DNA of 64,000 nucleotides from Actinomycetes bacterium (GTDB taxonomy: Bacteria > Actinomycetota > Actinomycetes > S36-B12). Location: positions 47,621-111,620 of the forward strand of contig JBAXSI010000002.1 in NCBI GenBank assembly GCA_037130755.1, given 5' to 3'. The notes below the pieces were generated by a model. The model was not told where the DNA came from and ran no database searches. It saw only the letters and a list, made by a program, of their open reading frames with translations. Below, in pieces: positions 25,983 to 26,625 of this stretch. Positions within the stretch are counted from its first letter, which is position 1, and every line of letters starts with the position of its first letter. A program made the position numbers and the translations under genes.

Positions 25983-26051
25983 CACGAGCCCACGGTATCC
26001 GCGGGCCTTCCTTGGAGGGACGTCCCGGTGATTGCGGGTCCCTTGGATGCC

Positions 26052-26067
26052 ATACCCCTGCGGGTAT
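26052..26067. promoter_or_regulatory. CsoR-type operator ATACCC-CTGC-GGGTAT
   Basis: Perfect 6-bp arms. Followed by -10-like TACACT (26073-26078), 7 nt before ATG 26085, so a leaderless transcript is plausible. Confidence 0.6.
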
Positions 26068-26084
26068 CGGGTTACACTGGGGCC

Positions 26085-26345
26085 ATGAACATCGAGCCAG
26101 CGGTCAGCCACGACATCGTGATGCGCCTCAAGAGGGCGCGCGGGCAACTCGACGGCGTCATCAACATGATCCAGGAGGAGCGCAGCTGCAGCGACGTGGT
26201 CACGCAGCTCGCCGCGGTGTCCAAGGCCCTGGATCGCGCGGGATTCAAGATCGTCGCGTCCGGCCTGCAGCAGTGCTGGGAACACGGCGACGACGCGCCG
26301 ATGACGCGCCAGGAGCTCGAGAAGCTCTTCTTGTCCCTCGCCTGA
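26085..26345 (+). CDS. CsoR/RcnR-family (DUF156) metal- or thiol-sensing repressor, non-canonical C-x-C fingerprint
   Basis: [32 protein letters not shown]...SGLQQC. Both Cys are present, but Gly occupies the position of the Cu-ligand His (-4 from the second Cys). Confidence 0.85.
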
Positions 26346-26409
26346 GCCGCGACCTGTCCGATACCTTCATTCCACCGAACGACATGGACCCCACCAGCAA
26401 GGAGCAGAA

Positions 26410-26625
26410 ATGACCACGCAGGTCTTCAAGGTTTCCGGCATGACGTGCGAGCACTGCGTCGCGTCCGTCACTGAGGAGCTCACCGAGCTTCCGGGCGTCG
26501 GGGCCGTGAATGTCGATCTGGTCCCCGGTGAGGTCTCGTCCGTGACCGTCGAGAGCGAGGCCGAGCTCGACGCCGCTGCGGTGCGTGCCGCGATCGACGA
26601 AGCCGGCTACGAACTCGTCGACTAG
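26410..26625 (+). CDS. copZ: heavy-metal-associated (HMA) domain protein, CopZ-like
   Basis: 71 aa with the GMTCEHC metal-binding motif and a ferredoxin-like pattern. Confidence 0.85.
   Translation: MTTQVFKVSGMTCEHCVASVTEELTELPGVGAVNVDLVPGEVSSVTVESEAELDAAAVRAAIDEAGYELVD

Follow-up and report, generated by a model that had tools for sequence, protein, structure and literature searches.

A CsoR-family repressor with glycine in place of the histidine ligand, encoded beside an orphan copZ in an uncultured actinomycete

How repressors of the CsoR fold discriminate between Cu(I) and persulfides with the same pair of cysteines is an active question. To this question we contribute an analysis of a CsoR-family repressor gene, here called REG, and of its surroundings in a 64,000-nt stretch (the window) of an Actinomycetes bacterium (GCA_037130755.1, contig JBAXSI010000002.1, positions 47,621 to 111,620 of the forward strand). 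The window has a GC content of 68% and matches contigs of metagenome-assembled genomes of uncultured Actinomycetota. REG (26085..26345, + strand) encodes an 86-aa repressor with the fingerprint x-C-G-C, as established from Pfam, PDB alignments, conservation, and the ratio of nonsynonymous to synonymous substitution rates (dN/dS), and it is followed by a copZ-like gene. Each element named in an earlier annotation of this DNA (the original prediction) was located at the place given for it. On balance, we favor a reading of REG as a dithiol switch of the CstR/ScCsoR type, responding to persulfide or thiol stress, and not as a histidine-dependent metal sensor.

REG matches Pfam family PF02583 with 77.8 bits (cutoff, 22.8; E value, 8.7e-22) over profile positions 4 to 74 of 78. 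In a pairwise HMMER alignment, residues 12 to 66 correspond without gaps to residues 13 to 67 of MtCsoR, which places C35 on Cys36, G60 on His61, and C64 on Cys65; the two cysteines are spaced 29 residues apart. The same register was obtained with a profile of 21 homologs, in which G60 falls on the histidine of GtCsoR (Geobacillus) and of InrS and on Asn55 of SpCstR (7MQ1). The ungapped alignment, the two cysteines, and the glycine for the histidine ligand proposed in the original prediction are thus reproduced by both alignments, which exclude a register shift concealing a histidine; G60 stays at the ligand position in the profile as well. According to HMMER, S34 occupies the position of the second-shell tyrosine of copper sensors (Y35 in MtCsoR). 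The invariant glutamate E79, in the motif LEKLF, lies outside the aligned stretch of MtCsoR (E81 in that protein), and CstRs likewise have a glutamate in the matching LEK.

The top PDB match of both REG and its family profile is SpCstR (7MQ1), a persulfide sensor from Streptococcus pneumoniae, with 57.9 bits versus 46.5 bits for the best Cu-sensing CsoR when the profile was compared with PDB sequences. The PDB matches of REG comprise CstR, CsoR, InrS, and FrmR. That a CstR is the best match of known structure agrees with the earlier suggestion that the C-x-C fingerprint points to persulfide- or thiol-sensing relatives. In the 120 best database homologs, G60 never varies, and C35 and C64 vary little if at all. 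Genome and metagenome collections were scanned as well and yielded 160 loci (designated L with a number), from 157 of which the regulator was extracted; position Y, the ligand position, is Gly in 156 of these and Ser in one. The dN/dS of REG against its relatives is 0.05 to 0.19. Chemistry like that of FrmR or RcnR was considered and rejected: the N terminus, MNIEP, has its proline at position 5, where FrmR has Pro2, position Y holds Gly and position Z (C64) holds Cys, and the NCBIfam models for FrmR and RcnR give 27 and 20 bits, far under their cutoffs. The Ni/Co fingerprint of RcnR and InrS was likewise rejected, there being no conserved N-terminal histidine (position 9 is H, R, or N).

The public gene call (P0001) begins at GTG 26028 and encodes 105 aa, with the operator and the −10 element inside the open reading frame. 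Because 113 of the 120 homologs begin at the methionine corresponding to 26085, and because the leaderless promoter described below is conserved, the GTG 26028 start is probably wrong and ATG 26085 is probably the true start, a correction that moves the operator out of the called gene.

Operator 1 (26052..26067; ATACCCCTGCGGGTAT), recognized by box scan and conservation, is the perfect palindrome ATACCC-CTGC-GGGTAT in the intergenic region between REG and a divergent MFS transporter gene. It fits the ScCsoR site type ATACC-N6-GGTAT (PMC7533328), a sequence match that makes it a predicted operator. It occupies the promoter spacer, downstream of the expected −35 position and upstream of the −10 element, 18 nt before the REG start codon. 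The −10-like TACACT (26073..26078, + strand), identified from sequence and conservation, ends 6 nt before the ATG. The original prediction had described a perfect box overlapping this −10; the box stands, but the overlap does not, since TACACT begins 5 nt downstream and is merely adjacent. The box is found within 60 nt of the regulator start in 41/43 close relatives (those with a full-length match were counted) and in 66/88 distant relatives. In 40 of the 43, the whole order of box, TAnnnT, 5 to 7 nt, and ATG is preserved, with no Shine-Dalgarno sequence, which bears out the earlier description of the ATG as probably leaderless and supports a leaderless REG transcript starting at 26085. The predicted leaderless promoter with the operator between its −35 position and −10 element is conserved and is not a coincidence, because this arrangement of box and TAnnnT is preserved among close relatives. 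Promoter inference was based on this conservation; a promoter and terminator scan of 25900 to 26700 gave no matches, but it used an E. coli-type consensus and is uninformative for a high-GC actinobacterium.

The −10 element of many relatives has the sequence GGGGTATCCT and thereby contains a third GGGTAT half-site, 4 to 6 nt past the palindrome (read at window positions 26066 to 26078 and at the equivalent positions in L007 to L015). The operator may be longer than the palindrome and reach over the −10 element.

Operator 2 (33455..33470; ATACCCCTTGGGGTAT), from the box scan, is the perfect palindrome ATACCCC-TT-GGGGTAT in the intergenic region between divergent genes for a thioredoxin and a DUF3039 protein. 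Both operators are perfect 16-mers within divergent intergenic regions. The pattern TACC-N6-GGTA occurs twice in the 64-kb window against 0.08 expected, and two occurrences were reached in 1 of 100 shuffles. These two boxes, the only ones in the window, adjoin REG and the thioredoxin gene.

Upstream of REG, the divergent MFS transporter gene (24786..25982, − strand; 398 aa) matches PF07690 and PF05977, with TIGR00900 under its cutoff, and its start codon is 70 nt from operator 1. Orthologs occupy the same place in L007, L009 to L011, L014, L024, L088, and L090, where several of them come after an AhpD-like gene absent from the window. This AhpD-like gene (CMD, PF02627; 115 to 129 aa) is the first gene divergent from the regulator in 18 relatives from the genome collection, its start lying about 10 nt from the box (for example, L009 5582 to 5956). 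The same divergent arrangement occurs in the Mycobacterium loci L060 and L064; in the window, the MFS gene faces REG directly across 25983 to 26051.

Downstream of REG, copZ (26410..26625, + strand) encodes a 71-aa CopZ-like HMA protein with the motif GMTCEHC; it matches PF00403, with the CopZ NCBIfam models under their cutoffs. It begins 64 nt after REG and has its own AAGGAG ribosome-binding site, with no operator between the two genes. Next, patB (26662..27819, + strand) encodes a 385-aa PatB/MalY-like pyridoxal phosphate-dependent C-S lyase (PF00155; TIGR04350 at 308 bits against a cutoff of 340). It lies downstream of the regulator in most close relatives, with or without copZ and copA. 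Substrates of PatB-type lyases are cysteine, cystine, and cystathionine. The HMA protein with MTCEHC, the PatB-like lyase, and the divergent MFS gene of the original prediction are all present. A further conserved gene (27788 to 28468; a shorter start in relatives corresponds to about 27905) follows patB and travels with it in most relatives. Its product has no Pfam or NCBIfam match; visual inspection shows a hydrophobic, signal-like stretch at its N terminus and the motifs GDS...G, GTNG, and DHTH, reminiscent of SGNH/GDSL hydrolases.

At operator 2, the thioredoxin gene (33055..33444, − strand; 129 aa) scores 98.6 bits against TIGR01068 (cutoff, 96.8) and starts 10 nt from the box. The divergent DUF3039 gene (33528..33806, + strand; 92 aa; PF11238) starts 57 nt from it, and the arrangement of box, thioredoxin, and DUF3039 was seen again in 6 relatives. 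Box-adjacent thioredoxin genes are present in L021, L022, L026, L028, L029, L032, L051, L065, L069, and L085, and also in L098, L101, L102, L131, and L133. Directly downstream of the window thioredoxin gene and on the same strand is a WhiB-family gene (32575 to 32946, − strand; PF02467), a family of redox-sensitive Fe-S regulators.

A P1B ATPase is absent from the whole 64-kb window, as the original prediction had said for the genes after copZ; tblastn with the CopA of a relative gave a best match with an E value of 0.04, which was the CopZ motif only and was rejected. No homologs of persulfide dioxygenase (PDO), rhodanese, CoA-persulfide reductase (CoAPR), DUF302, or SulP were found in the window, and no second PF02583 gene (CsoR paralog) occurs in it.

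The absence of copA is best seen against the synteny of close relatives, which runs TrmB, S51 peptidase, (MFS), (AhpD-like), divergent from REG, copZ, a 2.3-kb gene, patB, and P187. The product of the 2.3-kb gene is a P-type ATPase of 753 aa that has an HMA domain at its N terminus; it scores 543 bits against TIGR01511 (copper-translocating; cutoff, 397) and has the P1B-1 motifs CPC, YN, and MxxSS. The order REG-copZ-copA, followed by patB where the contig extends, was found in L007 to L011, L013, L014, L090, L094, and L103, and REG-copA without copZ was found in L023, L027, and L100. Together with L089, the loci with copA are 14 close relatives (10 with REG-copZ-copA, 3 with REG-copA, and L089). 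Within the close clade, REG-copZ-patB without copA is confined to the window, L087, and L088.

Directly before the patB start codon in the window lies a remnant of the copA 3′ end (26645..26661, + strand; tcctgCATGATCggggc), recognized because L013 has the identical 17 nt immediately ahead of patB. Abbreviated forms of the motif occur in L009, L010, L014, L094, L089, and L008, where they come after conserved C-terminal copA coding sequence. Judged from this sequence, copA was deleted in the window lineage from an ancestral REG-copZ-copA-patB operon; it was lost here and not gained elsewhere, because the 17-nt remnant stands ahead of patB, and a gain of copA in the relatives is ruled out on the same ground. 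The pairing of a CopZ-like protein with no CopA in the original prediction is accordingly correct as an arrangement, but it is a product of deletion and not a pairing by design.

Among the three loci without copA, the CopZ proteins are 73 to 77% identical, with a synonymous divergence (dS) of 0.7 to 1.1 and a dN/dS of 0.20 to 0.26, and GMTCxHC is kept in 14/14 CopZ orthologs. The intact motif and these ratios rule out copZ as a decaying pseudogene. By these sequence measures, the orphan copZ is maintained by selection and is a conserved leftover of a copZ-copA cassette.

Other content occupies the same slot elsewhere. In L015 (6410 to 9383), the space between REG and patB holds genes for a DUF4397 protein and a sortase, together with genes for an ECF-type sigma factor and an anti-sigma factor like RskA. 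The 3.4-kb spacing between REG and patB recurs in L016 and L097, which like L015 are of the Nanopelagicales type; the inserted genes were annotated in L015 only. The junction between REG and patB looks like a recurrent site of insertion and deletion.

The regulator family spans uncultured Nanopelagicales-like lineages, with 70 to 94% identity to REG, as well as Streptomyces, Micromonospora, Mycobacterium, Nocardia, Rhodococcus, Gordonia, Nocardioides, and others, with 57 to 70% identity. Genes starting just downstream of TACCC-N4-GGGTA in genome loci were collected as the box-adjacent set, and representatives were annotated. One member encodes a fusion of a metallo-beta-lactamase (persulfide dioxygenase) with rhodanese and has two boxes ahead of it in Streptomyces and Micromonospora. 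Rhodanese is also part of two further products, a Pyr_redox_2-rhodanese protein similar to CoA-persulfide reductase and a rhodanese-YgaP protein, and the set contains DUF302, SulP-STAS permease, MMPL transporter, and AhpD-like CMD proteins as well. Thioredoxin is box adjacent in 12 loci, Mycobacterium, Streptosporangiaceae, and Nocardioides among them. Regulators beside PDO-rhodanese, CoAPR-like, and rhodanese genes are 57 to 70% identical to REG, while the canonical CsoR of L089 is 39% identical. A neighborhood for sulfide or persulfide detoxification is not present at the window and occurs only in the more distant family members.

An MMPL-family transporter of 714 to 754 aa adjoins the regulator behind boxes, often paired, in L073 (3658 to 5882), L047, L069, L079, and L082. 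The relatives with this gene belong to Nocardia, Rhodococcus, Gordonia, Spirillospora, and Nocardioides, and MMPL is not mentioned in the paper on ScCsoR.

Streptomyces members, 60 to 69% identical to REG, have a two-box PDO-rhodanese gene and a rhodanese gene beside the regulator, and this layout is that of the published SCO0618-0621 circuit. There, ScCsoR (SCO0620) represses the PDO-rhodanese gene via two ATACC-N6-GGTAT sites, together with its own gene and the rhodanese gene, and is a sulfane-sulfur sensor that polysulfide releases from DNA through Cys37 and Cys66; its site resembles those of CsoR and RicR (PMC7533328). ScCsoR and Rv1766 were placed in cluster 3 of a sequence similarity network (SSN), as [quoted passage not shown] with the fingerprint x-C-x-C (Fakhoury et al. 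2021, PMC8643695). From the shared fingerprint, operator, and Streptomyces synteny, we infer that REG belongs to that cluster. By sequence, REG falls within the CsoR superfamily in the actinomycete branch of the CstR/ScCsoR type, a family already described and with one member characterized. The original prediction had called the ligand specificity of this module genuinely open. It is less open than that, since ScCsoR of the same family, whose Streptomyces circuit has the layout found here in Streptomyces relatives, senses sulfane sulfur and binds a like box, and since the boxes of the window and of its relatives mark thiol and sulfur genes.

The dithiol-switch reading is favored by the replacement of the histidine ligand by G60 and of the second-shell tyrosine by S34, with both cysteines invariant. 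CstR binds Cu(I) but stays on DNA; in bona fide copper sensors, the Y-position histidine couples to Tyr35 and Glu81, and its loss abolishes Cu(I)-driven allostery in CstR (PMC8643695). The same reading gains from the rank of SpCstR among solved structures, from the recurrence of the x-C-G-C fingerprint and the box type through the 157 relatives, from the thiol and sulfur genes at the boxes of the family, from the position of the only two window boxes beside REG and thioredoxin, and from the residue comparison and trees described below. Thioredoxin is able to convert sulfane sulfur to sulfide by reduction, as cited in the opening section of PMC7533328.

We infer the inducer, the cysteine chemistry, and the co-transcription of the operon, and the switch would then work as follows. 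A tetramer of reduced REG would occupy both ATACCC(C)-N2-4-(G)GGGTAT operators. At operator 1, it would cover its own leaderless promoter and face the MFS gene, and at operator 2, it would face the thioredoxin and DUF3039 genes. The nucleophilic C35 would react with sulfane sulfur, in the form of persulfide or polysulfide, or with an oxidant of thiols closely related to it, and the adduct would be resolved onto, or stabilized by, C64 of the neighboring protomer. REG would then leave the DNA, and REG-copZ-patB, the MFS gene, the thioredoxin gene, and the DUF3039 gene would be derepressed. Such a regulon would have a coherent sulfur and thiol logic, because thioredoxin reduces sulfane sulfur and PatB-type lyases act on cysteine and cystine.

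Several observations weigh against a sulfur switch. No PDO, rhodanese, or SQR gene lies near the regulator in the window or in the close clade, and with no local sulfide-oxidation enzyme, the specificity for reactive sulfur species is therefore borrowed from distant family members. The experimental data come from a single relative, about 60 to 69% identical to REG, and the cluster as a whole has been described as "largely uncharacterized" and as lacking the CstR wedge Asn (PMC11672702). Finally, in 16 loci of the close clade, REG is followed by copZ, by a gene for a genuine Cu(I)-type P1B-1 ATPase, or by both, the classic layout of a copper sensor, and the gap from REG to copZ or copA, 9 to 64 bp, contains no box in 16/17 loci.

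This last point gives rise to an alternative that we hold to be improbable, namely, that REG senses Cu(I) through a two-coordinate bis-thiolate, C35-Cu-C64′, the copper bridge mimicking the S-S(n)-S cross-link of CstR, and that REG-copZ(-copA) is a copper-resistance operon unusual only in its sensor. At 16 loci (the window, L087, L088, and 13 with copA), copZ(A) has REG as its sole neighboring regulator gene, with one operator upstream; the REG promoter is probably theirs, and the genes are presumably co-transcribed. The CopA of the relatives is a pump of the Cu(I) type P1B-1, copZ is under purifying selection beside REG even where copA is lost, and CstRs are known to bind Cu(I) (PMC8643695). 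Against this stand the missing histidine and second-shell tyrosine required for copper-driven allostery and the behavior of Staphylococcus aureus CstR, which Cu(I) does not release from DNA. Nor do the subclades linked to copZA have a conserved compensating ligand: in a column-by-column comparison, no residue of the sensing site separates regulators linked to copZA from those free of it, and a compensating His, Met, or Cys was sought and none had been gained, H67 and H9 being variable. In addition, the same type of protein controls sulfur genes elsewhere, and the second operator lies at a thioredoxin gene.

Neighbor-joining trees, which were built from 86 columns without bootstrap and are indicative only, place the copZA-linked loci inside the His-less family, with the canonical csoR of L089 as a distant outgroup. 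The tree of the close clade groups the copZA-linked loci in two subclades, which are embedded among loci without copZA whose neighbors are AhpD-like, thioredoxin, and patB genes.

Locus L089 (metagenome contig Ga0209254_10029537, 600 to 1700) differs from the other loci with copA in its regulators and is the one of the 17 loci that has a box after REG. Its REG (704 to 961) is 93% identical to that of the window. A second box, ATACCCCCCGGGGGTAT (approximately 998 to 1014), comes next, then a gene for a 113-aa canonical CsoR (1014 to 1355), and then copZ-copA-patB. This CsoR has the motifs DTYC and DEHLRHC, that is, x-C-H-C plus the tyrosine, and its 39% is the identity to the window REG cited above. 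That this cassette brings its own x-C-H-C csoR and box right after REG also speaks against REG as the copper sensor. The REG box of L089, with the core TACCCCCGGGGGTA, is nearly identical at its core to the csoR box, ATACCCCCCGGGGGTAT, and the locus is naturally suited to asking whether a copper sensor and a sensor of the CstR type share operators.

The similarity of these boxes, together with the published resemblance of the ScCsoR site to CsoR and RicR sites, is what can be said for a further alternative, in which the copper response would be exerted on the REG box in trans by a canonical CsoR whose gene lies at another genomic locus, so that two repressors would share the box and REG itself would be copper blind. 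We regard this as very improbable, as the 64-kb window has no second PF02583 gene and CsoR and CstR of S. aureus show no crosstalk despite similar operators.

The nature of the local regulon bears on another alternative, in which REG is a general sensor of thiol-oxidative or disulfide stress (H2O2, HOCl, diamide, or electrophiles) with a C35/C64′ switch but without specificity for sulfane sulfur. Its regulon would be a thiol-repair set of thioredoxin, the AhpD-like reductase (in relatives), an exporter, and DUF3039. In the close clade, the box-adjacent genes are indeed those for thioredoxin, AhpD-like CMD, MFS, and DUF3039 proteins, with no sulfide-oxidation enzyme. CstRs react rapidly with H2O2 in vitro, and an H2O2-specific sensor of the CsoR family has not yet been described (PMC11672702). 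The family also has no wedge Asn, which suggests a different reactivity profile; a 2024 review notes for the actinomycete cluster that the donor profile is possibly distinct and still unknown (PMC11672702). However, the invariant site residues are no different in regulators from sulfur-oxidation contexts, C-S lyases of the PatB type, with cysteine or cystine as substrates, are conserved directly downstream, and the one characterized relative answers polysulfide. We consider a general thiol-oxidant sensor unlikely.

Among the known systems closest to REG is ScCsoR/SCO0620 of Streptomyces coelicolor, from a group that includes Rv1766 of Mycobacterium tuberculosis and whose Streptomyces orthologs have the identities to REG given above. 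They have in common the superfamily, the 29-residue spacing of the cysteines, the lack of a histidine at Y, autoregulation (predicted for REG), and ATACC-N6-GGTAT. In contrast, the regulon of the window is without PDO-rhodanese, rhodanese, and TauE and has copZ, the PatB-like lyase, MFS, thioredoxin, and DUF3039, to which close relatives of REG add copA and the AhpD-like gene. The CstRs of S. aureus, Enterococcus faecalis, and S. pneumoniae (SSN clusters 4 and 10) share with REG the x-C-x-C fingerprint, the best structure match (7MQ1), and, by analogy, a presumed attack of the N-terminal cysteine on sulfane sulfur followed by cross-linking to the second cysteine. REG differs from them in having Gly for the wedge Asn55, in its actinobacterial origin, and in having no cst-type sulfide-oxidation operon nearby.

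Cu(I)-sensing CsoRs (MtCsoR, BsCsoR, SlCsoR, and RicR) are like REG in fold, in the positions of the two cysteines, in a GC-rich palindromic operator, and in the order regulator-copZ(-copA); unlike them, REG is without the histidine ligand and second-shell tyrosine, and in L089 a true x-C-H-C CsoR is a separate gene. A persulfide-responsive repressor wired to copper-resistance genes is known in SscR of the MarR family from Acidithiobacillus caldus, a recent precedent for a connection of copper stress with signaling by reactive sulfur species; it is of an unrelated fold and organism and works together with a canonical CsoR (PMC12455602).

What is unusual at this locus and its relatives is that, across a clade, no regulator other than a His-less sensor is encoded adjacent to copZ(-copA) and that the predicted local regulon is centered on thioredoxin and is not a sulfide-oxidation set. 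An adjacent copZ is thus no ground for the label "copper-sensing CsoR" in annotation. There is a small chance, in our estimate, that in uncultured high-GC Actinomycetota an x-C-G-C repressor is dedicated to copZ(-copA) and senses Cu(I) directly by bis-cysteinate coordination or, if not, that the clade wires its copper chaperone and efflux genes to persulfide or thiol stress through a CstR-type sensor. If true, bis-cysteinate sensing of Cu(I) would be a fourth, histidine-independent solution to copper sensing in the CsoR fold. The loci provide a natural series, with REG alone (for example, L012), with copZ-copA (L009), with copZ only (the window), and beside a canonical CsoR (L089), and this series bears on the cross-talk between copper and reactive sulfur and on the indispensability of the histidine.

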